From contig OZ316892.1 of the NCBI GenBank assembly GCA_973895155.1, positions 5,230,510-5,294,509 of the forward strand: DNA of 64,000 bases. Reading direction: 5' to 3'. How positions within the stretch are numbered: the stretch's first letter is position 1; every line of letters starts with the position of its first letter. The notes beneath the pieces were generated by a model. The model ran no database searches. It was not told where the DNA came from and was given only the letters and a program-made list of their open reading frames with translations. The position numbers were made by a program, and so were the translations under genes. The stretch is from Marsupella aquatica. Lineage: Eukaryota > Plantae > Marchantiophyta. Positions 5,840 through 49,200 of the stretch are shown in pieces.

Positions 5840-5847
5840 AGGGGGAG
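5840..5847 (+). promoter_or_regulatory. polypurine tract (PPT) of the copia element
   Basis: AGGGGGAG lies 2 nt upstream of the TG that opens the LTR. Confidence 0.85.
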
Positions 5848-5849
5848 TT

Positions 5850-7690: not shown

Positions 7691-7699
7691 TAGAAAGGA

Positions 7700-8110: not shown

Positions 8111-11100
8111 CAGTGATCCTCACCAGAACTCCAATCTCTTACCAAATGGTCGGCTCCAGGAGGTAATTTTGGCTTATTTGAAAGTGGATCATAGCGAAAG
8201 ATCTTTCTAGACTTGGAATAATAGCATCACTGAGCCCCGTAGAAGCAGTCTCTCATGGGATCGATCGATGGTCGTTCTCGTTTTAAACGTGTCGTCAGTC
8301 ATGATATTTAGTGAAACTCCTTCGTGAATAGAGTTTCTTCTTGAACAGAGGATCTGGCTTTAAAGGAAACGGAGGGAGGCTTTCTTAGTCCACCTTTGAC
8401 CTTCACAGTTATCTGCTCCTATGCGATGTTTAGTGTAAAATTTGACATATACCATCAATTGGTTTTACAGCTGTGGAATCCAGAGCTCGTGGATAAGATA
8501 TCTTGTCGCCCTACAATTCAAAGAGTCATGACTGTTGGAACAGTTTTTGCTTGTGAGCTGCAAACTAGGCCCGGAGAATCGGGGTAAGTAAATGTTCATT
8601 CTGTTCATTCGTTTAATCTTGCAGTGAGTTTTTTCTGATCATTTGAGGTTTCTTGTTCTTCAACACTGAACGAGTTTGTTGAACCTTCCGCTGCAGTGAA
8701 CTGTCATTTGTAGTTGCCTCAAATGCATTTCTGTTGGGTTAGACCTGTTCAAGGTTTGAGGTTCTGAAGGCTGTTTTGGCTTCACCAGGTATGCATCCAC
8801 ATCATCGAAGGAAACCATCAAAAACCTGAAGGCCCCAGGGGTCTATGCAAGGCCCTTGGGGAATGTGTTATATCTTATGTGTGGACCATTGACATCACCG
8901 CTAACTTGCAGTAAATTGTTGGACACCCTTTACCACCATCTTCCGAGGGAAATTCCTCTTGGATGTTAACAATGGCATTTGAGTTTGGAAGCGTGGCTAA
9001 GTTGGTGCCATTATTCGTTCTTTCAAGCAGAGTCATAGCCGAAATAAATGCCTATTCACTCCTGTGGCTTCATCTAGTCTGCACAAGCATGAATAAGAAA
9101 GGATTTTGACACTGATCTTTGTGTAGCTCCCAAAAATGTATGGCGTTCCATATCTGATGAAATTGTTTTGCGATAAAGATCAGTGTCGCCGGCTATCAGA
9201 TAAAAAAGTTAGGGAAGTTGAGAAACCCAAATTCGCTTCTCTGCATGCTAGACGCCCACGCCCAAAGTCAGATCTCCTTTCTCAAAATTTCACAAGCTAT
9301 AGTTTCGGGACTAGACATCAGCTTAGCCGTAGCAGTGGTACCTTCGATGGCTTTATATACAATCCACAGAGCTGCCACTTTCATCTGAGGTTCTATCCAC
9401 TTGATTGCAATTTAACAACGCATGACTTGGGTTCTTCTTTAAGATATTCAAGTTCCATTCTACGAAGGAGTTTCTCTGGATCATATGAAGCAGGCAGCCC
9501 ACCTCTTCCTCCATGCATGCCAAACAAAATCAAGCGAATCCCTTGAGAGTTGTTATGTCAATTCGATTTGGAAGTCTTTCAGTAAGCGACGGGGACGGAG
9601 GGAGTGAACCAGAATTGCAAGTCAAATAGAGAAAACAACCTTCCTGCCTCCCTCTCGCTCACAAACAGGTCTATGACTACCTTGCCTGTCAAACAAATGA
9701 ACGTCCACAACAGGGGTGACCTCCGAATGTGCAGTAGAATGTGCAATATCTCCCCGATGTCAACGTCATTCTCTTCGTCGTAGAGACGTTTTTCAACGAC
9801 GTCCTCTGTACGCATCTGGTAGAATACGCGCTCTCGACGAAATGGAAAGGTGCTCCAGGTATTGTTAAAGTGAAAAGTGGGGAGGTGACATTTGTGCTGG
9901 CATGTTCTGTAGACGTATGTTTTAGAAAGAGCCCTTATGTGAATAGACTTTCTATGATAGCCTTGGCTAGGATGAGCTTAATCCCGTCACATCGACCACC
10001 TCTTGAGATGAGCTCACTGCCGTCCTATCGACCACCTCTAGAGTGGTCTTCATGATTAACCCATGCAAACTTAGAAAACTCGTTAATTGGTGTTGCTAAA
10101 TCTGACTTCCACATCCTTTTGACACTTTCGACCTCACCTTCAAAGCTGAAATTCATTGGTCTAAATAGTTAAATGCTCCTCTGACTTGGAGAGTTTTGGA
10201 CGCACCACGAGCCAAAAACTTGTTTACATGCTGATCGGTGAATTGGAAAGAAAGAGTCTCCATATTCGAAAGAGAAAAAGGGGTTTGAGGATGACGGTGG
10301 AGCTGCAGATTTTGAAGAAAGAATTTTGTGCCTCGAAAAACCAAATGAACTCCATTCAATTTGCCAGCATGCATAAAAATGGGATGGCCAGCCAGGGGGG
10401 CAGCACCCCAGTGGACCGAAGGTTGTGGTGCCAAGCAGAATGGTGGAGCCGGTGCCAGGCAATTAGGCGGGCCTCAGAAGACGTCATCTAAACAAGCACG
10501 CCAGTGATTAGGTCCCGACTGGGATCCTTCCAGTGGGTCCATGACAGAAGTTTGATTCTATCGGTCTGCCTGCAGTGCAGCCACTTTTGAGCTTCTTTGT
10601 CTGCTAAATAACGATTGCACATCCGGTAATGTCATCCTCGTGCTCAAATGTACATCTCAGTCTTGTCGGAGAATGAGTGCGAGTGTGCTGAATCTGTCCA
10701 ACGAATGAGATTGGATTGGTTTGAGAAACTTCGTTCACGTCCTTATCCGGACTCGCACCATAGTTCCCAAGGGTCAACTCAACAGCAACAGGACTGACGC
10801 TGAGAGCACTGGAGCCCTGACTGGAGCAGTGCGTGGAGGTGGACCTTTGAGGATGACCCGAAAAGAGCATAGCCAGATTGCATACCCCCAACCCAAACCA
10901 TCGATCTCAATTGTAAGCATTTATGTGACCTCTGCCTCCGGGTGGTCCTGTAAAGTGACTGAAAGGTATGTCAGCATTCAGACTCATCTCCTTCAGATTT
11001 CGGTGAGTCCAATCATGTGAGGACGTATCATTTGTGAGTGCTTTCGGTGAGTCCAATCACTGGAAGCGTAGCATAAAAGTTTAGTGCATGAGGACGTATC

Positions 11101-22550: not shown

Positions 22551-23358
22551 ACAAGGACTCAACTTTCACAACAGTGTCACTTGGTTTCAAGCCTCCAAAA
22601 TATTCTTTACGCCTATGGGGAGGGAGAGGACGGCGACCCCCTCCAGGTCAGTCTTTGTTTCTTTGCTTCAATTACTTTTGGAATTTCTTTGCAAATTGTG
22701 AATACATGAGCCTCATTGTATTCGGATGCTCCTTGTGTTCATTGCAGGAAGGAGTAGTATCAGAGACTATCTCGGAGTTCGTAGCACCACCAACCCCTAC
22801 ACCAAAGACTCTACTCCCAGACTTCATAGCGCCAGTCGCAGCAACAGCACCAGCCCCTGTACCGTGTAGATTAGTCTCAGAGTCCTTACCACCACTTGCA
22901 CCAGCACCACCAGCCATTGCACCACAAATTGTACTATTAGAGTCGGTACCAGTAGCAGCAGCACGACCACCACGACCAGCCCCTGCACCACACATTGTAA
23001 GTCTCTAAAGTGCAAACTTGGAAGTCATTCAATTGCAATCTAGTCTGAATACTTAAACCCCAATGTCTTTTCACTCCCCTAAGCATTCATTTCATATATT
23101 CTAGGGACAAAGACGAAGGGGAAGGGGTATACCACTGGAGTCCCCATCCCCAGTACAAAAAGCAGCACCATCCCCTCCAATTTCAACAAACCCTTTCCAG
23201 GTTTGCCTTTGTGTTTTTTGTAAAAACATATGTTTGCAATGCTTTGCAATGTCTGAATACAGCTGCCTCATTGTCTTTGCCGTGCACTGCATTTCTTCAT
23301 TCTAGAGATGGAGCGAAAGGGCAAGTGGAGGGGTTGTAGCAGTGGAATCACCAGCACC

Positions 23359-23855
23359 CACTACAACATATTTGACACTTTTGCGAAGGTATTTTTGTCG
23401 ACGCTCTTGTATTTCCGATGGGCGGCGCTTTGCATATTTTGCGAATCAACCCGCATCGCAATTTGCGATTCTATCCCTATCGCAAATATAATAGCTGAAG
23501 CGCATTATATCGCTAATAAATTGCGAAGTAAGTGGTTTTGCAATTTTTACCGAAATGCGTCGAATGGAAAGGCACCTTCCGAAGACGGAAAAATCGCTCG
23601 CCGACTCCGAAACTAACTCATGTAAATATTTGCGAAGAATATTGGATTGAAAATGTTTTGCGATAGTAGTTGTTTGACAAGTTTAAGAATGTCGGAGGAT
23701 GGAAGATTTGCGAAACGCTGAAAATATGAAATTTGTGATTGATTTTGCATCACAAGTTTGCGAAGAGTGTAGTATGGAAATATTGAGAAACGAGAAGCTT
23801 CATATAAATTGCGAGTCCGGTGAGAGTTTGTGAGCTTCGCAAATTGTTCGCAAAC
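23359..23855. repeat. CACTA left TIR and subterminal TTGCGA(A) repeats
   Basis: About a dozen TTGCGA/TCGCAA copies in both orientations. Confidence 0.88.
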
Positions 23856-24319
23856 TAAAAATTAAGGTTATTGTGAGGTGAGACAATGAAGAGGGTGGAT
23901 GGTCCAATATATGGATGGGGCAGGAGGGAAGAGGAAGGGAGGATGGAGGGAGGTACAATGAAGGATGGAAAAGGGAGGGAGTACAATGGAAGAGGAAGGA
24001 GGGAGGAGAAAGAGGAAGGGAGGAGGAGGGACAAACGTACCACGGAGGAGGGAAACACGAGGGTGAGAATGAAAATTATGGAATAAGTAGGAAATAAAGT
24101 TATATTGAGCAACAGAGGTTAGATAGAAAGTTGCATGTAAAATTCACAAGTGATCACAATAAAACAATACAATACATATGTCATGAGTATGACTCATTCA
24201 AAAGTGAATGGCAAATATAAATATAGACAATCCTTTTTTTTATATCACCAAACATGAACAAATCAAATATAACATGAACAAATGTCTAGGCTGGACCCAA
24301 GTGCATATAAATATGTCCC

Positions 24320-27300
24320 TCACACTTGGTCCTCATCGGCCTCAAGGTCATCTAGGTCTGATGCAATAACATCTGGCTTCTCAGAAACAATGGAACGAGA
24401 ACGTGGCACATAGGTGATGACAATTGACCACTCGGTGTCTAAGGGGTATGGAATGTAGAAACATTGCTCCAAGTGTGATGGGAAAGCAAATGGTTCTAAC
24501 GTTTGCCAATGAGATGCTTGAACACTAGTGGCACTTGTCTTCAACCGTGTAAACCCACTCTCATCTTGAAGTACAGTGCAATTTTGACCAACAAGGTTCA
24601 CTTTGAACCACTTGCACTTGAAGACATATTCCTCAAACTTTGAATGGTTGTCATATGATACCACCAAGATCTCCTCTATCTTCCCATAGTGTGGCACAAC
24701 ATCTCTAACAATGTTCCTGTCATGGCGGCTGCTTCTGGAGTCTTGAGAAAATTCCCCTTGAACTCCACAATCAAAAGTACGACCCCTCTTCTCATCAAGG
24801 GAAGAAACCCTAAAATTAACAAAACCCACAAATTTTTATTGCACTATAAAAGATACCATTAATGTAATAATCATCAAAATATGACACCCATCCCTAAATA
24901 GCCAAAACCCACATGGCCTATGGCATAAATATAGAAGCCAACATTACAGTTATGGATGTCATTAATGATAATAGAAATTTTTTAAACAATAGAAATAACT
25001 AATCAAAATAAGGTCTACATGAATTAATAGAGGAAGAAAGGTTAGGTACTAGTGGACCTGAAGTGTCTCCCTTGTGTCCACATAGCCGTCTTGGATGTCA
25101 CCACTCTCAAAGGGCCATGAACAATGGTCCGAACGTCATCTGTGATGGTAAGAAAGTGGGACACATCTCCTCCTTGTGTCACCATGTCATCCAACTCAAG
25201 CAACTTTTGCTTCATATACTCATGCATCTTAGGAAAAATTCTTGCTCTTTGACTTGTTCTCTTGGCATTATCATAAAACTCTCTCCATTTCTCCATGATA
25301 TTACTATTACTCAACATAAATGTTGTCAATTGTGACCACTCTGTTGATGTCAACATGCGTGTTTTTGTACTCAACATAAATGTTGTCAATTGTGACCACT
25401 CTGTTGATGTCAACATGCGTGTTTTTGTGACACCTGTTAAACGGTCCTCCTCCTCTTCTCTTTCCTCCATCCAAGTACGTGGACAAGTAGGATCAATGGT
25501 GGCCAAGATGTTACTACAATAAAACATACTCTCTGCTGCCAAGTATCCTGTAGCTATGCTTCCCTCCACCCGTGCACGGTTACGTACATAAGCCTTCAAC
25601 ACCGCCATGTAACGCTCAAGCCAATACATCCATCTACAATGCACTAGACCTGCAATGGCAAGCTCCCGCACAAGATGCACAAGTAAATGAACCTGACAAT
25701 CAAAGAAGGAAGGAGGAAGGGCTTTCTCCAACTTGCATACCACCTCAGCTGCCAATACCTCCATCCCAGGGATCTCTTCTACATATATCTCCTTTGAGCA
25801 TATCCATCTCAACAAACGACCCAATGACCAGATGGCATCTTGCACTTCTTCACTCCCTATACCTATAATTGCCACTGGCAATATATGCTGCAATAGGCGA
25901 TGATAGTCATGTGTCTTCAGATATCGTGGCCACTTGTGATTGTCCTCCATCCCAAAAGCTTTTCGAAGGTTGGCACCATAGCCTGTAGGAAACCGCATCT
26001 CTCCTATACGGTTCCGAAATTCACGTCTTTGGCCAACACTCAACACCCAAGGAGCAGAAGGACGATTCTCCACACCTGTGATACGATCAATTGTCACCCA
26101 AACATCTGGATGCATTTCCATCTCCTCGCATGCCTCCCTAAAATTAGTGTCCTTCTCCCCATAAAAATGCTTTATCAAAGCCTTCCCCACATTTCCCTCA
26201 ATGTGCATGGGGTCTAAAAGATGGCAGATCTTCAACTCAGACCAATAGGGCAAAGTGGCTAGTATACTCCACCTGGTCAAACCTGTCCTATCAAAGGTGA
26301 AGGAATCATTTGGGTCTGCCACCCTATTAGCTAGTGACTTCCAATGTGCAAAACTTGTTGCATCAGGAATTTCACGCTCATCACCAAATGGCATGTCAAA
26401 GGAGGAGAATAGAAGTGGGTCAAACCTCATCTCATGCCCCATGGGAAGAAACTTTGTATGCCCAATATAAACAATCTTTCTAATCCATGAACAATATGTG
26501 GCCATGTCCTCTAAGCTTGGGCCACAAGTAGAGCAAGCTTTGTACCCCTGAGTTTGCAATCCAGAGACAAAACCAAACCCTGCTTACATAGAAGAAATCA
26601 AACCATGCAAACTTTATGTTAGGGTTGTCACATGAGAAACATCAATAGGAACTACACATTATTGAAGGGTTGCAAATGGCATGGAAGTCATCTTACCAGG
26701 ATAGTCATGCATTGTCCAACAAATGATCCCTCTCAATTGAAAGACACGTGGAAAACCTCCTGTAATTTTCCTGCCATCATATGCCCACACTCCATTCCAT
26801 AATTTTTGAAGTTCTCCAACCAATAGTGCCAAGTAAGTGTCAAAGTTCTTCACCTTTTTTGGACCTGGGATAATCAAAGACAATAAAAGGAACCCCTTCT
26901 TCATGGATAGCCATGGTGGGAGGTTATAATTCATGACAACCACAGGCCAAACTGATGTAGGTTGCCCCTTTCCTCCAAGTGAATGAGGGCTAACTCCATC
27001 AGATGCCAATCCTAGCCTCACATGGCGAGGATCATGTGCAAAGTCTGGCCATGTTGCCTCAATATGTTTGTGAGCAGGGGAGTCAACTGGCAACCGCATG
27101 ACACCAGACTCTAATCGATGAGTCTTATGCCATACCATCAACTCTGCCAAGTCAGAACACCGATACATGTGCAACAACCGAGGAATGATGGGAAACCAAC
27201 GAACAGCCTTCCTTGGCACCTTCTTTGTTAGCATGTTGGGGTCATAGCGAGGCTCATCACATGTTGTACATTGTGTCATGTTTGCATTGGCCTCATGAAA

Positions 27301-29199
27301 TAACATGCAATCATTCACACATGCATGAACAATATGATATTCCATGCCAATAGATGAGAGAACACTCTTTGCCTCCTTCCAAGTTGCTGGCAACACATTC
27401 TCAGTGGGCAACATAAGGTCATGGCAAAGTGCAAACATATCAGATAACAAGGCATTGCTTGCCTTGTGTTTGGCCTGTAGGTTCATCAACCCCAAGATGG
27501 CTGAAAGACGACTCAAACGAGCACCCTCATAGATAGGTGTTCGGGCATGTTCCTCTGCTTCTTCCCATTGGCATTGTCCCTCAGGGGTATGCCTTGGGCG
27601 TGGATCATTGGGGGGCACCTGCCCTTCATTGGGAAGATCATCACCAAGGTTGTCGGCACCAAACCAATCAACCATAAAGTCATCCATGGCTCTATCCTGG
27701 TCATCAGTTACTTGTTCATCCGTCCGAGGTACCTCTTCATCAGGGTTACTGCTTCCACTAGCACTTGATGAGGAGTGTGACTCTGATCCATGTCCTTCTT
27801 CTGGCATACCCATTTCTCGATATGTTGCTCTCAATCTCCGTGGTAACATATTTGGAGAGGGTCGCACATTCTAAAAACAAAGCAAACAATTGAAAGTTAT
27901 ATTGCAAAGAGAACACACACAAAAATGGGCTAGGGGTGTGCAAAAATGTAATAATATTGGTTGTGGTGCAAATACAAAATGTGGCCAAAGGCCATATGTA
28001 GTGCCCTTTCATATGCAACATACCACCTATGACCCTTAACTTAACCCTAATCCCACTCATAGTGAGTAAATAACTCATCCCCTGAGTTAATGGTCCTTGT
28101 TGCTACAACTAGGCAATGGTCATGATGATATGTCTGGCCATAAGGTGCTGGCGGAGGACCCTCAATGAAAACCCACTCACAATTTTGCCTACGCTTAGGG
28201 CGAGTCCCCACGGTACTGTTTATGAAACCAGCAATATTCCCAGTCCGTATGGGGTCCCCATCTATGACACGCTGCTCACTATACCTTCTAGTGTTTCCAT
28301 CAAAAGTATCCATGTCCAATGCATAAGTCTTCCACTCAGGGTGTTGTGCAAGGATCATGTTCCAATGTCTTCTCTTGTAGATGGGTCCACCATAAGGAAA
28401 CAAAGTAGGCCCCTCTCGGCCGCGTCCACCTCTACCACTCTCGGCGTCCACAATGATGTCCTCACAGGCAAAAACTCCATAGCCATGTCTATCCCCAAGT
28501 GTGGAAGGTTTGATAACCCAACGTCTACCCCAAACCTCTACCTCCGCACCGTAGGAAAGCTGTTGTGGCAAACCAAGAGTCTCAGGATCCCAGTCCTTGA
28601 TGATAGGGACACATCTGCCAGTGAACTCACAATCACCCCACCGACCCGTAACCACTGCCTTGTACAAATCAGTATCCCCTCGGGCCCGCCTCTTGGAACG
28701 CTTTCTCCCTCTTGGGACAATAGCCTCAACCCCAACTTCCCTAGGACTGGTGGGCCTTGCCGCTAGACCCAAGGCTTTTGAGAATGCATTGCCTATAGCA
28801 TCTAGAACACCTTGTGATGGGACATAGGGTGCTTGTGCCGCAGGTCTAGGCCTATTGGATACCTATTCCACCGAAACCAAAACAAACAAAAGTAGGTGTG
28901 AAATTGCAAACCTTCAACCATTGAGTAATGGGAATAGGGTAGGAAAACTAAGGCATAACACTTACCATATGAGATGAAGAAGCCCCTGCCGTATGACATC
29001 CACAACGCCCATATCTCTCAATATGTTGGGCACATATGTAAGATTTTTGGGAAACCTGACCCACACATCTGGAACATTCACAAAGTTGACGGGGTGGACC
29101 GCGAGGAGGAGGTGCGGTCGTGTGATGTTGAGGTGGAGGTGGTGTATCTTCATCAGAGGAGGACGAGTCTGTGGTGGAGATTTCAGAAGATGAAGACAT
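24320..29199 (-). CDS. CACTA transposase (TnpD/Tnp2-like), predicted 1139 aa; exons 29199-28966, 27870-26697, 26579-25058, 24809-24320
   Basis: CECSRC...H N-terminal motif; HACVNDC...CTTC; RLGLASDG; SVWPVV...YNLPP; DYPG|F...GYKACSTC; LDPMHIEGN; LKTHDYH; HLLVHL; RWMYWLER; VEGSI; HYGKIEEI; FKCKWF; EPFAFP. Splice phases 0/1/2 are consistent and no stops were found. Confidence 0.93.
25308..25427 (-). repeat. perfect in-frame 60-bp tandem duplication in the transposase
   Basis: TKTRMLTSTEWSQLTTFMLS is encoded twice. Confidence 0.95.
28047..29199 (-). CDS. SET-domain protein (putative lysine methyltransferase), predicted 349 aa; exons 29199-28966 and 28862-28047
   Basis: SET motifs in order: IKPS...GYGVFA, PYGG, YAL, IDG...GNIAGFINS, NCEW, VATRTINSGDELFTHY. 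Basic NLS-like RGRKRSKRRAR. A 103-bp GT-AG intron (28965-28863) joins the exons in frame. Confidence 0.85.
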
Positions 29200-30497
29200 A
29201 TCCCCTGTAACAAGATATAATTAAAATGGGCATGTTATGACCAAAACATACCACAAAATGATATAAATCAAAGTTCCCAAATAATGATGACAAGAAACCC
29301 AAACCAAAATGACCATAGCAATAAAAAAGGTACCTTTATGAGACCCGGGCTCAGCAGTGCCAATAGCTCTTGTGGCTCTAAGATAATTAATGAACCCAAT
29401 CTGAAGTATGAGGGAAAAGCTGCAACCATTCCATGTATATGTAAGCACAATAATCTGGACCAGACAAGAACAAAAAACCCTATATACATGTCCCCTTTAT
29501 ACATAGTGGCAACCAAAAGTGTTAAGTACATGAAAGGAACACTTTAGCCGATCATGCAATGTTTACCTTTCAGATGCCCGGGCTCTCACAATGCATATGC
29601 ATTAGTATCAAATCATCAAAAAGTGCCGCACCCTGCAAGCTATCATATATTCCCCTCCTTTGTTAGCAAAACCCATGCCAATCCCCTTTTGATTCATAAA
29701 CCCAATGAACCTCTCTTAAACCCAAAAGGCTGCAATATAAATCTCATGAAACCTTGCTTTGTCTTATCCAAACCTTCAACCCCAAACCGCATCCTACCTA
29801 TTAAACCTAAATCTGACTTACACACAAACCCAAACCTTTCTTCAACCCTAGAGACCTTTCTATTTAAAAACCCCAAACCCTAAAACCCTAAACCCAAACC
29901 TTACTTATTTCTTGTAAACCAAATCCCACACCTTTATTATTTCTTCTAAACTAATGTAAACCCAAACCTTAGCCTAAACCAACACCATACATAACCCATT
30001 AACCTGAAATCTGCCTAACCCTTCAAACCCGCCTTCAACTATTATCTAACACCCAAAACATGGCCAAAAAGCATTCCAAATATGAGTATAGAGGGGTCCA
30101 CTTCACCTTTGAAAAAAACCCTTTCAAATGAAACCAACATTCCCCCAGGACGAGTTGCCAATGTCTTGCGAAGCCGCTTCCTTCGCAAATACCATCACAA
30201 ATTAGAATTGAGGTTTGCGAAGTTGCTGCTTTCGCAAGACCTTCAGAAAAACAGAGCCCGAGAGCATTTCTGCGAGAGAGCGAAGGTGTTGCGAAGCCTT
30301 TCACGTCGCAATGGTTTCGCAAAATTGAGAAACTATATGCGAAACAAGAAGAATCGCAACTTGCGAAACGGGTTGCTTCGCAAGTCTTTCCCGCTTGTAC
30401 TTTTGCACTCGGCCGCGGTGTACTCAGCGGCATTTGACAAATTTCAAGCGTAGGGAGGGAGAAGGGAGCTCGCGCGCGCTCGGGGGGTGGCTTGGCT

Positions 30498-32466
30498 ATG
30501 GATTCCAGTGGAGCAAATGGAGGTGATAGGGCAGGGGTGAGTGAGAGTGGCAATGGGAATGAAGGCAATGGGGAGCAGGAGAGGAATCGATGGACCGATT
30601 TGATGGCTGAGCACCTCAATGCAGCACAGTTGAGCCACTTAGATTTGACTACACCAGCAGGGATTGCTTCTTTGAGTGCAATCCTTGGGCAAGCCTTGCA
30701 AACGGGAGTAGATGCAGGGAACATTGCAAGGGAGGAGGAGCAAAGGAGTGCAGCTCAACAGAAGGCAAGAGAGAAGAAGCGTAAGAAGGAGGAGAGGGCC
30801 AAGGCAGGAGTAGTCTCACCTGTTGCCCTAGAAAAGAAGAGGAGGAGAGAGGAACGAGATGAGATAAGAGCACAGCGGGAGGAGCAGCAAAAGAAGGAGG
30901 AAGAGAGGAAGAAGCTGCCTATGATTGCCTTGATCGAAGGCATTCCTACTGAACTGGCCTACACCGGGGCAAAGAGCACTATCAGGCTTATGGTGCGCTC
31001 CAATTTTGCACGAGGAGTTGAGTGGGGGAAACTCAGCAAGGCAAACCAGAAGAAAGTAATGAGTCAAATCAAAGATTCATTTCGAAATGGAGCAGAGATT
31101 GATGAACAGTGGCTTGCAGATAGAATTTCCAATTCAATGTCTCAAGCACGGTACCATGATAGGAAGAAGGTAAGGGCCTACCTGGCAAACTTGGAGGAGT
31201 ACAGAAATGTGAGGAGGCCACTGCAATTCACTGAGGACGTGTGGAATGCCTTTTACAAAGTGGAGGTGCAGATGAGAGCTGCCAGGAACCTTCTCTTCTG
31301 GAAGGAGATGGAAGCCAAGGCACAGAAGGCCGGGAAGTCCGACCGAAAGCTCAAGGCAATGGCTGAGAAAGTGTCTCACATGCAGCACATTGTGGATGAA
31401 GTGGGTGCACCACCCCAAAAATTCATCCTTGCAGCTGAGCGAGTCAGCAAACGGCCCAAGACCACGCACAAGATGGGCCAAGGTGGACTTCCCGGCCTCA
31501 AAGCACACTTTGTGAGTGGGCCCTCTCCTCTCCTCCCTTGCTTCTGTTTCCTTGCTTTCAATTGCTATCCAAACCTGCAATGCCCCCCTGCATACCTCTT
31601 GTTTCTTTCTTACGGCCTGCCTTGTACTTTAGGTCACCCTGACACATTGCGTGCCTTAGAGATTTCTCGGAATTGTTTAAAAACAGAGTTTGCGAAGCTT
31701 TTGCGATGTGGGTTGCTTCGCAAATGTTTCGCAAAGTCTATCATGGCATTTTTTAAAGTTGTAAATGCGAAGCTATTGCGAAATAACTCGCTTCGCAAAC
31801 TACTTCGCAAACAGCCAATTTATTTGAATTTGCGAAGTGGGGAGTTTCGCAAGTGTGTATTATGTTTTAAAAAAACCGCTAAGGGTTATTGAGCCCAATT
31901 TTGTGTTAGGGGCACCCTATTAGCACCTCCATGCATTTTTCTTGGGTTTATAGCATATTAACCTCGATCTATTTTGGTTTTGGAATGTTTGGTTGTGGTA
32001 GTATAAGAGGTACCGCAGGAAGATAACAGCAAAAGAGATGGAGATAGGAGCTGCGCATGGAGCCAAACATCTCTTTGACTTGGTTGACGCAGAGTTGGCG
32101 ACTGTAAGTGCATGTATCCCCTTCAGTTTTTCCCACCCAATCCACTTATCTTTTCATTCCGTAAACCTAAACCAATTTGGCGTTGTGCTGCGCAAACAGG
32201 ATGATGAGGATGCCATCGATACCAGCAGCACCGATGAGAACAATGAGGGGACCACGACAAAGGGGCCCAAGGTAGGAGGGAGTAGTGGATCTGGACCAGT
32301 AGGAGGAGTTTCCCAGCAGGAGGGGGAGGAAGAGGATGAGGATGAGGACGAGGAGGAACCAGATGTGGAGGAGCAGCCAGCACCACCTCCTGTGCCACGT
32401 CCGGATCTTCGCAAGAGGGACAAGGGGAAGAGGCCGGCGACAAGGAGTAGGAGGACCCCATTCTAG
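30498..32466 (+). CDS. CACTA second gene (TnpA/ORF2-like DNA-binding protein); exons 30498-31511, 32002-32103, 32200-32466
   Basis: Open frame with a coiled-coil/basic region, W...F...W...RP..FTEDVW and THKMGQGG motifs reminiscent of CACTA ORF2 proteins, and an acidic tail. Phase-0 GT-AG introns. It is divergent from the transposase. Confidence 0.72.
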
Positions 32467-32714
32467 AGCTTGGTGGTGTAGTGCCTATGGGATGCCCATT
32501 TACTTAGTGTAGTATATAGTTTTGATATGGGTAGTCTTATAGGGACCTAGCTTGTCATATGACACCCATCTAGGGTTTAGGGTTTAGGAAACCCTAATTT
32601 TTGTGTACCTATCAATTTTCTATAAAGCAATTTTGATTCAGACCTCATTCTCCGTGTTGGACGACAAGACCCCAACCATAATTCAAAACTCTAAATCTAA
32701 ACCCTAGCCTCAAG

Positions 32715-33149
32715 ACATCTTGCGAAACCTATGCGAACAACCCAATTCGCATATTTACCATATTGAAGGTATCGCAAACATTATGCAAACCACATACGTT
32801 CACAAAAATGCGAAGCCATGTTCATGGCATAACTACCATTAACTTAATATCGCAAACCGATTACCAAACTTCTGGGATTGCAAATATTTAACTGCTTGAT
32901 TATTATCGCAAGCCTCTCGCGACGCCCACGGAGTCGCTTAAATGTGAGTCCTTTGCGATTCTATTAGTGTCGCAAGTTGCAAAGGCGTTGCGAAGGTCTT
33001 GCGAAAGACCGGATGCGAACCTTTGGGCTTCGCAGTTTGCGATTCTATTGCGATGTGCGATACTTCGCAAAGGCGAGTTTTGTTTTTTGATTTCCTTTGT
33101 TGTTTGCGATGCTTTCAAGTTCGCAAAAGGTGTGGGTAGTGTTGTAGTG
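32715..33149. repeat. CACTA right subterminal repeats and TIR
   Basis: Dense TTGCGA/TCGCAA copies ending in TGTTGTAGTG. Confidence 0.88.
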
Positions 33150-35120
33150 ACCAGCCCTCGCACCACGGATTGTAAGTCTCAGAAGTGCTTACTTGGAAGT
33201 CGTGCAATTGCAATCTAGCCTTCATACTTCAACCCCAATGTCTTTTCACTCCCAGGTTTGCCTTTGTGTTTTTGGTAAAAACATTTGTTTGCAATGCTTT
33301 GCAATGTCTGAATACATCTGCCTCATTGTCTTTGGTGTGCACTGCAATGTCTTCATTCTAGAGACAAAGCAGAAGGGCTCTTGGAGGGGTTGTAGCAGTG
33401 GAATCAGCACCAGCCCTCGCACCACAGATTGTAAGTCTCAAACGCGCTTACTTGGAAGTTTGAATACATCACCCTAATTGTCTTCTACGTGCACTGCAAT
33501 TTCTTCATTCTAGCCCGTGCACGGGAAAGAAATTTGATATAGGTCAGCCTGGTTTGCCTTCCTGTACAAGGCCACATTCCTTTCTATTCATATTACTTTG
33601 CAGGGGTTAAATACACAACCCTTGATGTATTCAAGTCAGTTAATGATATTCTCCATTGTAGAGAGGAAGTAGAAGGGGAAGGAGTGTATCAGCGGTGCCC
33701 CCAAAACCAGCAGCAGCACCGGCACCAACAAGCAACCCCTCCCAGGTACGTCTTCATGTACCAGGCTAATTTCCTTATCAAACTGCTTTGCAGGGAGTGA
33801 ATACACAACCCTCACTGTCTTCTATGTCAATTAATAATTTTGTTCATTGTAGGGAGGAAGACAAAGGGGAAGGGATGTGTCAGCAATGTCCTCAGCACCA
33901 GTGGCACTAGCAATCCCAGTACCAGCAACCAACCCCTCCAAGGTACGCCTTTGTGTCTTAGGCCACATAATTGAATTCCTTCTCATCAGCAGCGTCCAAT
34001 TGTTGAGTAATGTGAATACTTCTTTGTCAATTATGTCTTTTGATGTTGCTTTGGATTGTAGGAAGGGCAACAACGGGAAAAAGCAAGCAAAAGGCGAAAA
34101 GGAAAGGGAAATTTGGTGGAGCAATCCCTTGCACCTGCCCCAACCCCTATCCCAACAAATGAACACTCAGCCCCTGCCCCTGTAACAACACCAACACATG
34201 CACCTGCCGATATCCCTGGACCACCACTAGCACATGCCCCTACACCACGACCAGTAGAAGCACCAGCCCCTATACCAGTGCCAACACCAGGCCCTGCACC
34301 GGCTACGAACTCCTCACAGGTATGCCTAAGGGTGCAGCAGCAAAATTCCTCTGCTTCATTGTGGAATGTGAATACCTCTTTGTCCATGTATTCTAATGTC
34401 TTTGTGGGTTGTAGGTACCACAAGGAGGAGTTGCTTTGTCCTTAGTACCTGTTCCTGTCTCAAGGAAGAGGAAGGAGGCCTCTAAATCAAGAAAGGGTAT
34501 GAGCCAGGCATTGCAGGTTGTTCCTCTATTGGCAGTCGACCCCAAAACAAAAGTTGTGTTTTTGCACCCCGAAGATGATGACTTAGCAACATCAGAAGTT
34601 GAAGACAGAGCACTGAGAGGCAAGCAAAAGCGAAGTAAAAGCGCGACAAGTAGAGGGGAGGGGCAAGGGAGAGGAAGAGGAGCACCTTCTACTCGACCAA
34701 CTCCCTTGCATGAAATCCCGCTAGGTGATGGTGACAATGTAGACACATTTGGGCCATCACAACTTTTGCATGACTCCCAAATGACTGCTTCACAAGATAC
34801 ATTCAGGGAGGTTATTGACCAACTCCCGCACCCTTCCCAATATGCTGACTGAGTGTGGATGCCCTTCCTGTGTGGTACTAAGCCATTTTTGTGGTAGCTT
34901 CAGTGGTCTTTAGATGCAATGTAGCTTGAGGTAGCTTCAGATACAATGTAGCTTCATTGGAAGGCAAGGAGGCCCATGATACATCTACACTGCAAGGTCA
35001 CAACTCGACTTGCAACTTGTACTGGAAACATTTATGAATAAAAAGCAAGTTGCATTCACTATGTTCTGATGTATAAAAGTTATTCATTCTGCTGGATACT
35101 ACCTTCAATCAGCACCTTCA

Positions 35121-35607
35121 GTTTTGGAAGACATTGTCCATATTGTCTTCGCACCACACTTAGCCATTTTTCCAACGACATGATATTCTGCTTCAAGAAG
35201 CCATTTGAGCGGGGGTAAATGGTGGATGTTGTGGGTTTGGAAGACATTGTCCATATTGTCTTCGCACCACACAGCCATTTTTCCAACGACACGATATTCT
35301 GCTTCAAGAAGCCATTTGAGCGGGGGTAAATGGTGGATGTTGTGGGTTTGGAAGACATTGTCCATATTGTCTTCGCACCACAACCATTTTTCCAACGACA
35401 CGATATTCTACTTCAAGAAGCCATTTGAGCGGGGGTAAATGGTGGATGTTGTGGGTTTTGGAAGACATTGTCCATATTGTCTTCGCACCACACTTAGCCA
35501 TTTTGCCAACGGTTTTGGAAGACATTGTCCATATTGTCTTCGCACCACACTTAGCCATTTTGCCAACGACACGATATTCTACTTCAAGAAGCCATTTGAG
35601 CGGGGGT
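35121..35607. repeat. tandem array, about 111-bp unit, 4 full copies plus 1 half copy
   Basis: GGAAGACATTGTCCATATTGTCTTCGCACCAC starts at about 35126, 35239, 35350, 35460 and 35517. Confidence 0.93.
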
Positions 35608-35801: not shown

Positions 35802-36533
35802 CTAAGTCAAGAGCTCATTGCTACAAAATACTTCCCCACAACAGGTGCACCTAAATACTTCATGCCCAGACTCATCTACTCCAAGCAACTCAACATTAAC
35901 TCTATGACCATCTGCTTTGATAGGAGCCCTCCATTGTGCACCCATTGCACTGAATTGTTGTTGAAGCCATGCCTCTGCCTCAGAATGGGACCTAAAAGAC
36001 TTGTGACTAGCTCCACTGAATCTGCTCACCTGACATTCTGCCTCCTCCCAAGTACGCTATATTCCAGGACTGCGCCCCCTAGCAATGGCATACCATTTTT
36101 TCTTTGAGGTAGAGCCTAGATCACAATTGTATGGAAGAGCAATTGACTTAGAGCGAGAGGAGAAAGTCTGTGATTGTAATTTCACCCTTGTGGCAGGCTG
36201 AGTTTGCGCAACGTCAACCAATTGTGCTTGTGAGGCTGACAAAGTTGGACCTGCATTAGCACCTTGGCGCCGAGCCGATATAGGTTTTGGTGGCCAAACA
36301 ACAGCCACTACAGGGGAATCGTGACCCTCTGATTTTGATGGCGCTGTACTTTGAGCAAGGGGAGGCAGCCCATCTCGATTCCACACTGAAGACAAACACA
36401 AAATCCGTTCCAACATGCGATGGAGGAAGAAGAGTAGTGCACTCAAACCTGCAAATACGGTCCATATGGCGAACCCCAATGCCCAAAACAACTGAACTAC
36501 AAAACCAACACTGCCTTCATTGAACTTTGCCAT
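35802..36533 (-). pseudogene. ORF with an N-terminal hydrophobic segment and an RNase H1 N-terminal / caulimovirus viroplasmin-like hybrid-binding domain
   Basis: KKWYAIARGRSPGI*RTWEEAECQVSRFSGASHKSFRSHSEAEAWL matches the HBD consensus. A TAG at 36059-36057 replaces the conserved Tyr. Confidence 0.8.
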
Positions 36534-37032
36534 TGCCAAATGGCAATCCTGTCCTTCGCGCTGTCGTTGTTGCTCTCCTGTCCTTGGCACTCTCGCTCTC
36601 TCTGGCGCTGTCGGGCGCTGCACAATCTACTCAGACCTCTCTCTGGCGCTGCAGTGCTGTCCTGTCCATCCTCTACTACACTGGTCTCCTAATACCTCCT
36701 CCCTTTGTTGTCACTCATGTGGACGACTTCAAAGACTCCGCTTTAGTCCGCTCGCCAAATGCGCACATTCTCCATCGAACACTCTATGTCGAACAACGGT
36801 CCCGCGCGCCAATATCATTGCGGAAGTAGATTCAAATTTGAAGACATTATGGTCAATGTATTCAATGTCAATGAAGGAAGTTAAGAAGACAACATGGTCG
36901 CTGTCTTGAAGTGCAAGGATGGAAGATAAACGGAAAGACAACATGAATATGTTGTATTCATCAGAGAATAATGGTGGAAAAAAGTGACAAAAGTCTGTTT
37001 TGATGCACAACCAAAGTTCAGTAATAAAGTAA

Positions 37033-40000
37033 CTAGTAAGGTTCAGTAATATCAACATGATATTGTGACCCAAATCCTTGACAGTGTATTGCAGCCTCAT
37101 TGGCCAATTCCATGCACCTATCAATGAAAGCTTGTGGCAATTGTTGTTCACTATTTGGGAGAAGGGGCTGAGGCACAATGCTCTGGATTGGTCCTGTGTC
37201 TGTTGTTGGTGCTGTCAATTCAATACTATATTCAGTCTGTAGTAGTTGGTCTTCCCAAGGAAAGGGTGACACAGGTGGGTGCTCCAAATTGACTGCATCA
37301 CCATTATCCACCTGCATATGAAGGCAACTTTAAAATTTGTCCCTAGCATGAGACCACACATGCATGAAGCCCACAAGTAATGATATATACTTGTAAGAAG
37401 ACTGTTAATGTTGGAATCCTTACTCTTGCCGGATCTATTGGCGTCACACTATGGACTTTATCACAAGATCTTTGGTTATGTCCAACCTGCCCACACTTAC
37501 TGCACCTGCACTTCCCAGTGTTAGGCCCCGCTTTCTTTGCCCTCGATTGAACTTGAACAATTGGAAGTCCAGCAATAGTGTTTGCTGTTGAAAAGGGTTC
37601 CACCCTATTTGGATCATCATCTAGTGGATATCTCAAGAATAGTTGTCCAAGGGAGTCAATCACTTATTCTTCGCCTTCTCCAAGAGCCCTAGGTGGATGC
37701 CTCCCTCCACGACCCTGTTCGATGCGGACCATTCTATGTCTGCCCCTTTTCACAGCAGCCACAGGAGCAACACAATTTGGACTTGGCATTAAGTCTGATA
37801 CAATAAAGCTAGGTAAAACATTGTCATACAAAGCCCTAATTGAAGCAGTCCGCCAACATTTGTGAAAATGAGCAGAATTTTTTTTGCCTTCCTGGTCATC
37901 CCAAGCCATTATATGCTCACATGGCCACACCCTTTCTTGCAGCTCCCAACAAGTGCAACATTTCTTTGGTGACAGTGACACTAGATACTCCTCACTTTGG
38001 GATGTAGTTTGAACCTTGGCTGTGGACGCACCATCATCAAACACCTGAGCATATGAAAACTTGGATATAATTACAAAACTATTCAAATAAAGAATACATT
38101 CATACTAGTGTATTTTAATTGAACACAGAGCTATTAAGAAGACATTGATGTTACAGTATATACAGAACACGTAGCTAGTAATGCATACACAAGACCAGGC
38201 ATGAAGATTACCTGCCATTGACCAAACGTCTTGAGATTCTTGTTGTACCTGACCAGGGCTGGAATAGTGAGTACTTCCTGTCTCGCCAACGCAACTGCTT
38301 TCTTTTCTTTAAACTTTTGCTGAACATATACCCACATGCGCTCCATCAACTTGCAAGGAGCAAATTTGCGCAAGGGGAGTAAGCCTGAATTTGCTTGCTC
38401 AGCAGGGTTGCTTGTAACCTTTGCCATGCGGGGAAGTGGAAAGGCATGCCTGGCATAAATTTTTGCATCAAAACTTCTGATGTAGTCTACAGCATTTGCA
38501 TTCTCATGTGCCTTGACGGACTCTGCCAGTCGCTTCAAACATGCTTCAAATCTGATACAGGTTCACAGGGAAAACATTGATGTTAATGTATACAATCATG
38601 TCATACACACAGAAAACACTTGTGTGAGTGATATGTACTTCACATTCTGTATTCGAGGAGAGGTAATATTACTGTATTGAACACTGAGTATGCGCTATAT
38701 ACATAAGAAGACAAATGTATGTAAAATCAAAGCAATGAAGGTTTTTGGACTTACTGTCTTTCATCGTTGGCATATATGCATCCTGTAAAAATATCTGCTG
38801 CTGCTTTGCCATGTCTGTTCTTGACATTAGCTCTCAGGTGGTTTGCACATGCTGCATGTATCTTACCTGGCCATACGTAACTCACAACGGCAAGTAGACC
38901 TTTTTGTCGGTCTGATATGAGTGGCATGTGAGGCGATTCAATGCCATACAATGATCTATCTACCAATTCCAGAAACCAGATCCAATTATCTGTGTTCTCA
39001 ATTGGAGCTACTGCGTAACATAGAATCAATCCTTGGCCATTTCCATCCAAACATGTAGCTAAGAATAGTTGAGTGGGGTACTTCCTGTTCTTTGTATGAC
39101 ATGCATCAAGAGAGATGAGAGGTTGAATGTAGGTACATGCTTTTCGTATAGCTGATGGGCAAATGAAAGCTCGACAGAAAACGTTGGAGTTTTCCATTGG
39201 GGACCAGACTGCCACTGCACCAGGGTCAGTCTCTCTCACCCTGGCAATTAATTCCGAAATCATTTGAAACGTGTCTTCCTGCCCACCAAGGTGCAGATCC
39301 CGTACATAGTCTTTTGCTCGCCACATTTGGTGGTAAGTGCTGTTCTTTTTATAATCCCCTTGAAATCCGTAGAGTAGTTCTTTGACCGGCACCTTCAAAT
39401 TTCTACACACTCTAGGCGCCAGTGTGTCTCCTAACCACACTGCCTTTTGTGTTGGGCCCCTCCACTCTCCACTTGTGTTTAGATACTGGACAATTGTGTT
39501 TCAGCTCACACACAGTAATGATATGAGCCCCGCTGTGAGCTTGCCAGTGACATCCGACCCTGAATGGGCAGTAGGCTGAACAATCTAAACCATCTTCATC
39601 GTACTGTGGTGGGGGCCTAAACCTAGAAAACTCCCCGCATACTCCTGTGGTAGAAATCTTCCTGACTTTTACCGTGCCAGGGGCATGTGACCCAGGTAGC
39701 CACACATTGCTATGCTGCACTACTGTGTGTGGTTTCTTTGCCATTGTTGTGTTCCTCTGGAGACAGTTTGGATCCAGAGGTCCAAGGGGTGCACGAACCT
39801 CCTATTGCAATCCACACAGAACATATTCATGTTATTGTATATGGAAACACAGAAGATAGTGGTGTCATTGTATACAAAATACACACCACAATGGGGATGT
39901 TTATATGAAACATAGAAGACACTCATGACGTCGTATACAAAACATTGATGGTAAAATGCAAAGAAGACATTCCTGTTGAGGTATACCTGTGGAGCATTTG

Positions 40001-45490: not shown

Positions 45491-46246
45491 TCACCAACTG
45501 CGACTGGCAGAGTTGGATTGGGAGGTGGATCTGCTCCTAGATCGGTTAAGATTGGGAAAGTTATTAGGATTACGGTTGTCCATCTGGGAAATCTCTTCCA
45601 AATGCGGGAGGAGGTCTAAAAGTTGTTGATCTCTCATGTCATCAATAAAAGAGCTAATAGGAATGGCATTAGCTGGCTGCAACATGTAGGAGTGAGGGCT
45701 ATTATCAATGATGATGACCTTAGAGAGATCCCGGCCCAGCAAGGTGAGGTCCTTCACCAAGCCTCCTTCAATTGGCCTACAAGACTCACGATATCTTCTG
45801 AACCTGATAGCATTATGTTTGTCCAAAATATCCAGCAATGGGTCTGCATACTTTCTCAAGCTTGCTGTGAAGATGACTACCTCAAATACCTTGGCCATTG
45901 CCTCTAAGAACCTATCCACCCCTGGCCGTTTTATCACATATACACTGCAAGGCTTTCCCTCAACCTCAACCGTGATGTTGAAGTCATAGTGGGGGACCAC
46001 CTTGAATGATGAATGAACTAAAGTTTCATCTAGGTCAAGTACCAGTGTCTTCCGCCCATCATGGTCTTGGCTCTGAGGGGGCAGGCGAGCATATTCCTCA
46101 GGGCCAGGGGGCTGGCCCTGACCTTGACCCACTTGCTGGCACTCACAATTGCTACTCGGGTCGCATCGACCACCACTATTTTGTTGTTGTAAGTTCACCA
46201 GTTCTGAATCACACTCAGCTACCTTATTCACTTGAAAGCATTGCAT
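45491..46246 (-). CDS. CTD small phosphatase-like (NIF/FCP1, HAD superfamily) protein
   Basis: KTLVLDLDETLVHS (DxDxT), KRPGVDRFL, VIFTAS..KYADPLLD.LD, RYRESC, KDL..LGRDL, IIIDNSP, NAIPISSF. The catalytic domain is intronless; the true start is uncertain. Confidence 0.93.
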   Translation of the reverse strand: MQCFQVNKVAECDSELVNLQQQNSGGRCDPSSNCECQQVGQGQGQPPGPEEYARLPPQSQDHDGRKTLVLDLDETLVHSSFKVVPHYDFNITVEVEGKPCSVYVIKRPGVDRFLEAMAKVFEVVIFTASLRKYADPLLDILDKHNAIRFRRYRESCRPIEGGLVKDLTLLGRDLSKVIIIDNSPHSYMLQPANAIPISSFIDDMRDQQLLDLLPHLEEISQMDNRNPNNFPNLNRSRSRSTSQSNSASRSW

Positions 46247-49200
46247 GCTGACTTGCCATGAATTGCAATGAGAGTAGGCAAGTTTTGACCTAGATCCTTT
46301 GATGGGCCCAAAACAAATTCAGGATAGTTGCCATAATGCCGCCGATACTGATAAAGAGTATGCTACTAACTCTGCTTTCTCTTGTTGGTAGTGTTGTTTG
46401 TAGGCACCTGTTTTGCTCACACTAGGATTGAATCACTTCCTTGACTTTTTCCCTCACGGCTGTTGTCATGGCTACTATGGAAAATGGTCATGCTTGCAAA
46501 GTGCTTTCTTCTTCCTTTGCCTATCAACTATATAACGAGCATACCCACCATGGCTTTCTGGATAGTCTCTCAGACCAAGTTGCTCATAAAACTCAACCTA
46601 TACGATCATGCATAGAGCATGATCATGAACCAAAGATTATCAGGTGTTGTTAAATTTGCTTTGTTTTGGGATGTTGTGAGGTAAGGGGGTTAATGTGTTC
46701 ACAGATTGGATGTGACTCAATTCAATCAAGATGGTACATGGATCAGGATCAATAACACTTAGAGGTAAATCTTGCATCAGATTCTTTTGACAAGATTTGG
46801 ACAACAAAACATTGACTCGGACACTCAGTGAATTTTAAGGGTAAGCATGTCTACTACTGGGACATAAACTAAGCTGATATATAGGAAGGTCCCAGGGTAA
46901 GGTGTAGAGCTGGAAAAAGATGGAGTCTCTGGATATGCAAGGTGAGGAGACCTAGTTGAGCCATAGAGATATTGAGCCCCTCTAGACCACAATTATGGCA
47001 CTAAGATTCCATTAGTGATCTTCCACAAAGAAATCTATCAGACATTGGACTGAAGGTGATTGACTTCATAAAACCATTGGGACAAGAAACCCTTTAGACC
47101 ATGATAGAGATGGTACTGGTAACATGTGGATTACGTCATAAGGAATAATGATTCATCTCAAAATCTTCACCAAGGTGTAGATGACTAAAAGAGTTCAAAT
47201 ATCAAGTGTTTGCTCTCTCCAATGGCACCAACATCCTGCTCAATGGCCACACAAAACAAAACAAGAACAAGAACAAGAACAAAGCAAATATCTAGAATGG
47301 CATAAAATTAATTATTGCAACTAATTAGGAAAGTTTAAATAAATAACTCAAGGAGTTTAAATAGAAAGGATTAGGAAACTAACTTGATCAGGCTCCCTTG
47401 CCACTGTCAAAACATTTGAAAGTAAGCTACAAACGTCTCAATTTTGTATGCATGGTTGAATTGATTAATTAGTGATGGATAGTGTTATATTTGCTACCCA
47501 TAGTCAAGCGGGTTGGGGAAATTGGAGGGGAAGGTGAGACAGTGTTTAGAAATTGATTGAGCTCAAAAAGTACAACAAAGCTTCCTCTTGATGAGTAGAT
47601 CAAAGCAGATTTCAACTCTTCCATCACCACCCCTCCACACAACACATTTGATCAGGGCCCACTGTCACAAAATATTTCCAAAAAAACAAATCTTTGGGGC
47701 CCCTCTCATCCTCATTCCAACTGACCCTGACTTCCTAACTTAGGGGGTTCTTAAGAGCTATCTGAGTCCTTTCTGGACCTACTGCTGCTGGTTTTGCTGC
47801 TCCTTTGTTGAGGGCACATTCCGGGGCACACCAGCTGGTAGAAATGGGTGGTGGTGATGAAGACTATGACCGTGATGGTCTGGGACCCTCAATGCAACAG
47901 CAACAGATCGAAGCAGCTCCGGGTGTGAACATTATCAAAGATGATTGATGTTTGATAATCAGCCCCCTGCTGCCATTGGTACAATTGGGTTCTTGCTGAG
48001 CACATTGATGAAAATAAAACCATAATGATGTAGTAAAGATTGAGAATGGACCCTCTCACACAAACCAACATGCACACCCCCAACAACCAGAAGTAAAATT
48101 GGACAAACTCCACTAGCCAAGCTATCACCCTCCAACCCCATGCCTCCCCCAACAAAATAATGAAAGAAAAATCACAAACCCTGAATCTCTGCACACAACC
48201 TTACCAAACTTACAAATTCTGAGTCTTCTGCCAAAAGAATGGACAGAAGATAGAGTTGGTACCAAATGACAAACTCTGGGTTGCATTTGTGTTTGTGGGC
48301 ACCACTCCTCTACACAAGGTCTCTCTCGTCCAGATACACCTTCTTTAAATGAGGCAGAATTTCCACCGTGACAAATGAAACCCCTTGTTCAGCCAATGGG
48401 AGGGCTCGGATGAAAAGGCCAAGAGGCACATCAGCACAACCCTTGGAGGACAAACTCCACACAAACTGACGGTGCCTGGTGATTGTGGTCCCTTGCCCCA
48501 TTGGTTCACCATTGATTTGTGGCCTAGATTAATTTTGCGTAGGTTTTATAGGGATCGAGCAATTCAATATTCACCAAGATCTAATGGTGTAGATTCGTTG
48601 GTACAAGATCTAATTAAGAAGCTGGACCTAATGTAGAGTTTTTTCTTCTCTCAAACAGCTTTTTTATTGAAAGATAAGAAACACTAGAAGATGTCCTGTA
48701 CAGTAGGCTTGATAGGGAACACTCAAGTGGCAAACAGTCACAAACAGAGTGCCCCAAAAAATCTTCGTGGATTACAAATTGACATCATTCTGATTGTGAG
48801 CAATCCATAGCTCTTAATGATGTTAGTAACCATCATCTGTGTTCATTGTTGTTTGTTCTATGTATGTCTAGATTGAAGCACCCTCTTAGATTCCTCATCA
48901 TTGTCAATTCATATCCCATGTCCTTAAGGAATCCTCATAACAGTAGTAGGGGGTGTCAAAGGTTCCACCCAGAGCTTGTTTTTGCAGGAGCAACATCTTT
49001 CATGTCAAGACGCGTACAGTAGACACGGTCGGCTCTCACGATTGTGAGAGTTGGGAAGAAGGAAGCTATTTTTGCATCATCCAAAAAGCACTAACCCAGC
49101 ATGGCCCTACCTGGGGAATATGAAACCTAAATTGACAGTTGCAAAATGCATGGTGAGTCCAAAGACTTTGAGGTCATGCAAGGGACATGATAAGCAACAC

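Follow-up and report, generated by a model that had tools for sequence, protein, structure and literature searches.

A CACTA transposon of 9,791 bp in the liverwort Marsupella aquatica carries a short motif, TTGCGA or its complement TCGCAA, in four dense blocks, one at each end and two inside, and every block contains motif pairs that form palindromes with a fixed 11-base spacer. The element lies in a 64,000-nucleotide stretch of contig OZ316892.1 (positions 5,230,510 to 5,294,509 of the forward strand), here called the window and numbered from its first base. The palindrome, its spacing and its four places recur in related elements, and no terminus was found at either internal block; the four-block arrangement is a real, conserved cis-regulatory layout. 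We consider it fairly likely that a dimer of ORF2, an accessory protein encoded by the element, binds the palindromes, those at the ends in the service of transposition and those at the promoter and in an intron so as to keep the element's genes on or tuned.

Spaced palindromes in four blocks

The element, its motif blocks and the putative binder are located as follows (blocks are unstranded).

23359-33149: CACTA (En/Spm) element, 9,791 bp, with the terminal inverted repeat (TIR) CACTACAACA at each terminus (complement up to 33149) and the target site duplication (TSD) ACC
23356-23358 and 33150-33152: the 3-bp target duplication ACC
23381-23853: left subterminal block with 13 sites, the first lying 22 bases from the end; two palindromes, at 23439 and 23463
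30166-30383: internal block with 10 sites, lying between the divergent genes; palindromes at 30166, 30215, 30289, 30337 and 30361; its end is 115 bases upstream of the ORF2 ATG
31690-31852: internal block within intron 1 of ORF2, with 9 exact sites (10 cores); palindromes at 31701, 31776 and 31830; flanking half-sites 11-12 bases out
32720-33126: right subterminal block with 13 sites, the last of which ends 23 bases short of the terminus; four palindromes, at 32953, 33013, 33048 and 33104
30498-31511, 32002-32103 and 32200-32466, forward strand: predicted exons of ORF2, a 460-aa open frame with a coiled-coil region and an acidic tail

The TIR, CACTACAAC, begins with CACTA. Together with the 3-bp TSD, a TnpD/Tnp2 transposase, and direct and inverted subterminal motifs (13 sites per end), it identifies a CACTA element, which looks intact.

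TTGCGA/TCGCAA is the element's most enriched hexamer, with 46 occurrences; the 54,209 bases of the window outside the element have 12. Forty-five of the 46 fall in the four blocks (13, 10, 9 and 13 sites, at 27-53 per kb), an enrichment with Poisson P values of 1e-19 to 1e-24 relative to the rate outside the element. This confirms the four dense blocks described in a previous sequence-only reading of this DNA, as well as its placement of the third in ORF2 intron 1 (predicted at 31512-32001, GT..AG; the second predicted intron is 32104-32199). The remaining site, at 32409 in ORF2 exon 3, is the only one in 5,600 bases of coding DNA (1.2 expected), and the other non-coding DNA of the element has none in 2,624 bases (0.6 expected). 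The same reading called the motif sparse in coding regions, which is correct as a count; since observed and expected numbers are close, exons are simply at background level and show no special sparsity. We rejected avoidance of the motif by exons as an unneeded explanation.

The arrangement of the sites is more specific than their density. Among 31 forward and 26 reverse cores there are 14 TGCGA..TCGCA pairs at exactly 11-base spacing (2, 5, 3 and 4 per block), and 12 of these are exact TTGCGA-N11-TCGCAA units of 23 bases. Permutation within blocks (10,000 rounds) produced a mean of 0.59 pairs at this spacing and a maximum of 6 at any distance, and the 54 kb of the window outside the element contains no pair spaced by 11 bases. 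Sites on the same strand are often 11-12 bases apart, and extra half-sites often lie 11-12 bases outside the palindromes, approximately one helical turn. The half-site profile derived from 54 cores is (G)(C/T)WTCGCAAA.

Conservation of the layout and traces of methylation

Relatives were identified by a scan of metagenome contigs, from which we analyzed the best 80 of 265 stretches with an ORF2 relative. The motif occurs in the DNA preceding ORF2 (256 sites in 28.0 kb; at least three sites in 52 of 56 loci), in intron 1 (356 sites in 19.7 kb; at least three in 59 of 64 loci) and at the 3' end (238 sites in 23.0 kb; at least three in 23 of 27 loci). There are no sites in 74.6 kb of ORF2 exon 1 (80 loci) or in 6.4 kb of exon 2, and few in transposase/SET exons (2 in 11.5 kb), intron 2 plus exon 3 (1 in 16.7 kb) and host flank (7 in 17 kb). 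Both internal clusters are present in 48 of the 50 loci that span both regions; the other two, L008 and L076, have foreign DNA upstream. Pairs spaced by 11 bases number 247 across the 80 loci, compared with 60 for the next commonest distance.

One relative, L075, is a full-length element with four blocks, and blastn aligns only its exons to the window, not its non-coding parts. Both L075 (TSD TGT) and another relative, L065 (TSD CAA), end like the window element. The distance between the last half-site and the right terminus is 23 bases in the window and in 21 of 21 related ends found, in a search that required a motif within 60 bases of the terminus and set no distance. A second family is represented by L054, whose ORF2 DNA is 69% identical to that of the window; 9 of the 10 cores of the intron block are in register between the two, and the tenth is altered at its CpG. 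In close copies from four sequencing runs, the 163-base intron block has 19 variable positions, of which 3 fall in 60 half-site positions versus 16 in the other 103 (P = 0.046). Each of the three half-site variants is a C to T change at a CpG. Non-CpG half-site positions vary in 0 of 40 cases versus 16 of 103 for the others (Fisher P = 0.006), in a variant list that lacks one row and from contigs whose placement conserved words may favor.

Several relatives have departures in structure. Three (L019, L031 and L065) have lost most of the transposase and SET sequence and retain the promoter block, ORF2 and the ends, thus resembling the TnpA-only Spm1 families of Arabidopsis; the L065 element (902-9999 of its locus) is filled with unrelated DNA. 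In intron 1 of L009 (about 900-1050), an 11-base unit that includes the half-site has grown in tandem or slipped, and L066 carries a repeat of the promoter block and ORF2 start. No ORF2 relatives were found in viral contigs. A double-palindrome pattern matched one unrelated contig, the GC-rich viral L081, in which three tandem 32-base units (5001-5087), each with TTGCGA-N11-TCGCAA, are unrelated to the element. The predicted proteins P0164-P0176 were considered as a second subfamily and rejected, as those inspected are gapped models of the main family.

Non-motif CpGs suggest how the blocks may have been methylated. With motifs masked, the CpG observed/expected ratio in the window is 0.88 for the four blocks, 0.20 for other non-coding DNA and 0.29-0.49 for exons; the end blocks (0.98) and the DNA immediately upstream of the ORF2 start (0.99) account for the signal. 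Corresponding non-motif ratios for the main related family are 0.69 in the upstream region, 0.74 for intron 1 and 1.11 at the 3' end, with 0.08-0.22 in exon regions. From this CpG retention, it is likely that the active line kept the blocks less methylated. Dead copies were likely methylated throughout. Old copies of the main family (L001-L080) have lost C at 15% per base in CHG versus 4.8% in CHH contexts, a trace of strong host CHG methylation.

ORF2, the SET exon and what the clusters may do

The fixed spacing, the fixed distance to the end, the conserved half-sites with changed spacers and the same four places in relatives support the view that the clusters resemble binding sites for a protein that the element encodes. 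ORF2 is probably that binder. A precedent is TnpA-Spm1 of Arabidopsis, which, in the available text, binds clusters of CCVTCGCAAA at the termini only (chromatin immunoprecipitation sequencing), lowers CG methylation and activates transcription, requires ROS1/DML2/DML3 while H3K9 methylation stays, and consists of two tandem three-helix helix-turn-helix units (bioRxiv 10.64898/2026.08.24.746577). The half-site of the window agrees with this motif at 8 of 10 positions, the upstream bases being GCW versus CCV. The ORF2 model contains a confident three-helix unit (residues 152-228; predicted local distance difference test score, pLDDT, about 88-94), and exon 2, a possible place for a second unit, lies outside the model.

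ORF2 belongs to a family of 72 clusters at E values of at most 0.001. W, F-x-N-G, R-x-x-x-R, P, W and GQGG are retained in members that have the full domain and are about 23-31% identical, and named homologues are from Sphagnum species and the liverwort Calypogeia. Its W..F..R..P..W..H-x-x-G pattern may resemble that of Transposase_24; neither ORF2 nor 29 aligned family members nor 21 additional homologues matched Transposase_24 or its kin in Pfam. Fold searches with the model were dominated by coiled coils (best Z 7.4) and returned no clear match. PDB sequence searches with ORF2 yielded nothing useful, and the Atlas search gave a best score of 0.76 with no usable named match. Because its position, build and motif are like those of TnpA, ORF2 probably works as a counterpart of TnpA, though we do not file it as a member of that family.

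We propose that ORF2 would dock on TTGCGA-N11-TCGCAA as a dimer, and that dimers at the ends would contribute to assembly of the transposition complex in the manner of TnpA. The five palindromes at the promoter and three in intron 1 would extend ORF2 control to the element's genes, as VANC clusters do in VANDAL elements, and internal binding would counter CG methylation. The genes of the element read outward from the middle, with ORF2 on the forward strand divergent from the transposase/SET gene on the reverse strand, which places the promoter 3 to 7 kb from the ends and would explain the need for internal clusters. Activation by the internal clusters is only modestly preferred to repression, and the SET protein is not required.

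Several observations weigh against this proposal. The suggestion of the sequence-only reading that the blocks are binding platforms for ORF2 holds insofar as the clusters resemble element-protein sites, share the TnpA-Spm1 core and have ORF2 as their likeliest binder; homology of ORF2 to TnpA was not found, as Pfam, PDB and Atlas searches with ORF2 and distant homologues gave no link. TnpA-like proteins have been described as restricted to flowering plants (PMC13547354 and, in its available text, bioRxiv 10.64898/2026.08.24.746577), and the 6-base core shared with Arabidopsis may be convergence. Spm1 binding and demethylation are described at the termini only, whereas here there are two further conserved clusters, at the divergent promoter and in the intron. 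The internal blocks of the window alone have 4 CpGs observed versus 9.5 expected (0.42; counts are small). In 57 old copies (64 less 7 near-duplicates), CpG has changed to TG/CA at 27% of motif, 27% of other block and 22% of exon positions; on these figures we rejected resistance of motif CpGs to decay, and motif sites thus appear unprotected once a copy is dead. The 64 aligned loci have a mean identity of 90% and form one main family, which limits independence. There are consequently just three independent lineages, with ORF2 DNA 69-76% identical. Finally, the predicted RNA folding of some intron blocks is stronger than that of shuffles that preserve the motif.

The other coding features of the element, on which one of the alternatives depends, are the following.

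24320-27870, reverse strand: TnpD-type transposase coding exons (open frames 26659-27870, 25042-26583 and 24320-24835) with Transposase_21, DUF4218 and DUF4216
28047-28862, reverse strand: SET-domain exon with its own stop codon, inside the first coding intron of the transposase gene (PF00856, E value 6e-6)
28966-29199, reverse strand: first coding exon, which contains a Cys/His cluster and has a GT donor in frame with the SET acceptor at 28863 and with the transposase acceptor at 27871

The transposase domains have Pfam E values of 7e-39 (Transposase_21), 2e-32 (DUF4218) and 7e-8 (DUF4216). Within the transposase, 25308-25427 is a perfect 60-base tandem duplication, in frame; contigs from three of the four runs carry a shorter, different stretch there, so the duplication is private to the window copy or to its assembly. 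The SET exon contains no motif cluster. It has the SET fold (54 PDB matches at E values of at most 0.001, SET proteins only among the matches listed) and the signature motifs GxG, N-(H) and ELxxxY, with GYG, FINS and ELFTHY conserved. Its 42 homologues include named ones from Sphagnum species and the liverworts Calypogeia and Riccia. The Cys/His exon is predicted to be spliced alternatively to SET or to the transposase. It is joined to SET in the database gene models P0121, P0124, P0135 and P0142 (Sphagnum and Calypogeia), which are themselves predictions, and the Sphagnum gene model P0148 runs from the Cys/His exon via part of SET into the transposase. Contigs from the four sequencing runs read across the introns with no splice joints; splicing and expression are predicted.

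Alternatively, the internal clusters could serve transposition or dose control, with bound ORF2 looping or compacting the element, or blocking its own transcription or splicing in a Suppressor-like negative autoregulation. This is possible, and we are doubtful of it. The palindrome and its spacing are identical at the ends and inside, one cluster lies in ORF2's own intron, the internal blocks of the window lack clear CpG retention, and subterminally bound TnpA is described as blocking RNA polymerase and as needed for transposition (available text of PMC2613891). However, the main related family retains CpGs around both its promoter and its intron block, and the five palindromes directly upstream of the ORF2 start are activator-like. 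Dose control and the activation that we favor can both hold, at different ORF2 levels. Another proposal, made in the sequence-only reading, is that ORF2 on the clusters recruits the element's SET protein. Histones or another protein would then be methylated at the ends, promoter and intron, and the shared Cys/His exon would be the docking part. The intact SET exon, kept together with the element in Sphagnum and Calypogeia, fits this proposal, as do the first exon predicted to be common to SET and transposase, the predicted pairing of TnpA with TnpD in Arabidopsis (PMC13547354) and the known targeting of internal motifs by VANC-type proteins. However, the SET class and substrate are ambiguous, with MLL1, SET8, NSD, EZH2 and one bacterial SET giving similar scores, and L019, L031 and L065 retain clusters and ORF2 without SET, though these derivatives could be served in trans. 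TnpA-Spm1 activates through host DNA glycosylases and without a change in H3K9 methylation; the clusters are therefore explicable without an element-borne SET, and recruitment to the promoter and ends went unsupported. A complex prediction for ORF2 (P0001, 15-362) with Cys/His-SET (P0124, 28-343) gave no verdict, with a score of 0.00 in both runs, made without alignments and with an uncertain partner fold. Overall, we regard SET recruitment as unlikely. Its fullest form, a self-contained chromatin switch of bryophyte CACTA elements in which an ancient TnpA-type dimer, reading the TCGCAA word also read by Arabidopsis TnpA-Spm1, sits on the palindromes and recruits the element's SET via the Cys/His exon and splice choice decides between jumping and chromatin marking, seems quite unlikely.

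Explanations that dispense with ORF2 are weaker candidates still. The palindromes may be RNA or DNA hairpins or cruciforms, involved in splicing control or as a small-RNA source, or they may be sites for a host transcription factor or the transposase. The intron block is predicted to fold at -71.9 kcal/mol (z -7.0 versus dinucleotide shuffles), remains below half-site-preserving shuffles (z -2.5 in the window, -5.0 in L054), and has outer spacer bases that are partly self-complementary. Yet the excess folding is uneven (z -0.8, -1.4, -1.0 and -3.3 in four other loci, and about -0.9 for the promoter block), predicted structures vary among loci, and hairpins do not require a single loop length. 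The unit is also present at both ends in fixed register, and palindromes are absent from the 54 kb of host DNA. Transposases can themselves regulate transcription according to part of the literature, but plant TnpD is described, in the available text, as having no DNA-binding domain (bioRxiv 10.64898/2026.08.24.746577). We consider this group of explanations improbable. Very improbable, in our judgment, is an origin of the internal clusters as remnants of nested or fused element ends or as neutral slippage repeats. Local alignments of the left with the promoter block and of the intron with the right block (scores 48 and 46) exceed all 300 motif-preserving shuffles, suggesting that single units may have been copied, and the 11-base unit of the L009 intron is an instance of slippage. 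However, this similarity spans approximately one palindrome plus spacer, the other four of the six block pairs are within the shuffle range, and the clusters occupy the same places in three lineages with conserved half-sites. No TIR-like sequence was found in register with either internal block, and because there is no terminus the blocks are not nested ends; the sequence-only reading, too, had noticed no internal CACTA termini. Unit copying between blocks could be a route by which clusters grow, rather than a trace of old termini.

The element is inserted in a degenerate host repeat with a period of about 260 bases (22974-23358 and 33149-33500), and the empty site is visible in an adjoining copy. 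Elsewhere in the window are Copia retrotransposon frames (1487-5642), a Mutator-type transposase fragment (38751-39500) and a NIF/CTD-phosphatase gene (45491-46318). A reverse-strand frame at 36057-36626 has a weak RNase H1 N-terminal (Cauli_VI) match at its end and adjoins a 111-base tandem repeat (35123-35568); the two are perhaps another mobile element.

Comparison with known systems

Already in print are subterminal motifs, internal clusters in VANDAL elements, and other transposons that carry SET genes or internal arrays of inverted repeats. A literature search that did not extend to most subscription papers or to Repbase found nothing on this bryophyte CACTA family, its palindrome or internal clusters in plant CACTA elements. 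The 23-base fixed-spacer site is a precise candidate binding site for a CACTA accessory protein beyond flowering plants, where TnpA-like proteins were reported absent, and provides a direct means of studying the function and targeting of a SET enzyme carried by a transposon. If ORF2 binds this site, TnpA-type self-regulation, and even its DNA word, may date to the origin of land plants, and a CACTA family would have reached the VANDAL layout of internal clusters independently.

The comparisons below draw on the available portions of the cited texts. The closest parallel to the element is Spm1 with TnpA-Spm1: both are CACTA systems whose accessory gene and transposase are distinct, and in both a CpG-containing motif with a TCGCAA(A) core is densely clustered at the two ends. 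The palindrome with an 11-base spacer is a feature of the window element, and palindromes are unmentioned in the available Spm1 text. The window element also has a SET exon and a bryophyte-type host, in which TnpA-like proteins are said to be absent, whereas Spm1 is from Arabidopsis. Maize En/Spm with its TnpA, snapdragon Tam1 and soybean Tgm share with the element a CACTA TIR, a 3-bp duplication, and direct and inverted subterminal motifs for which accessory-protein binding is proposed or shown (PMC2613891). Their motifs are different and are described as subterminal only (PMC2613891). In En/Spm, TnpA and TnpD come from one spliced transcript (PMC2613891). Here, by contrast, ORF2 has a divergent gene of its own, and it is SET that is the predicted alternative isoform of the transposase gene.

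The red-algal Plavaka elements, with their accessory genes PAG2 and PAG3, differ in that their arrays are not described, in the text available, as common to the element ends, and PAG3 encodes a ParB/2OG-oxygenase protein, a domain not found in ORF2. The likeness lies in a CACTA-related element with a SET accessory gene (PAG2, methylase plus SET) and internal inverted-repeat arrays beside an accessory gene that are proposed as self-binding sites (bioRxiv 10.1101/2025.02.11.637652). VANC proteins of Mutator-like elements use motif clusters in introns and intergenic DNA (PMC5735166, PMC10398659). VANDAL elements belong to the Mutator-like superfamily, whereas here the transposase is CACTA-type and ORF2 has neither a VANC nor any other Pfam match. 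VANC motifs are tandem, and those of the window form fixed-spacer palindromes. VANC motifs also diverge fast between families, whereas the window motif is identical in three lineages at 69-76% identity. What VANDAL and the window element share is the layout itself: short motifs clustered in intron, intergenic and terminal non-coding DNA and not in exons, with growth by tandem duplication, seen here in L009.

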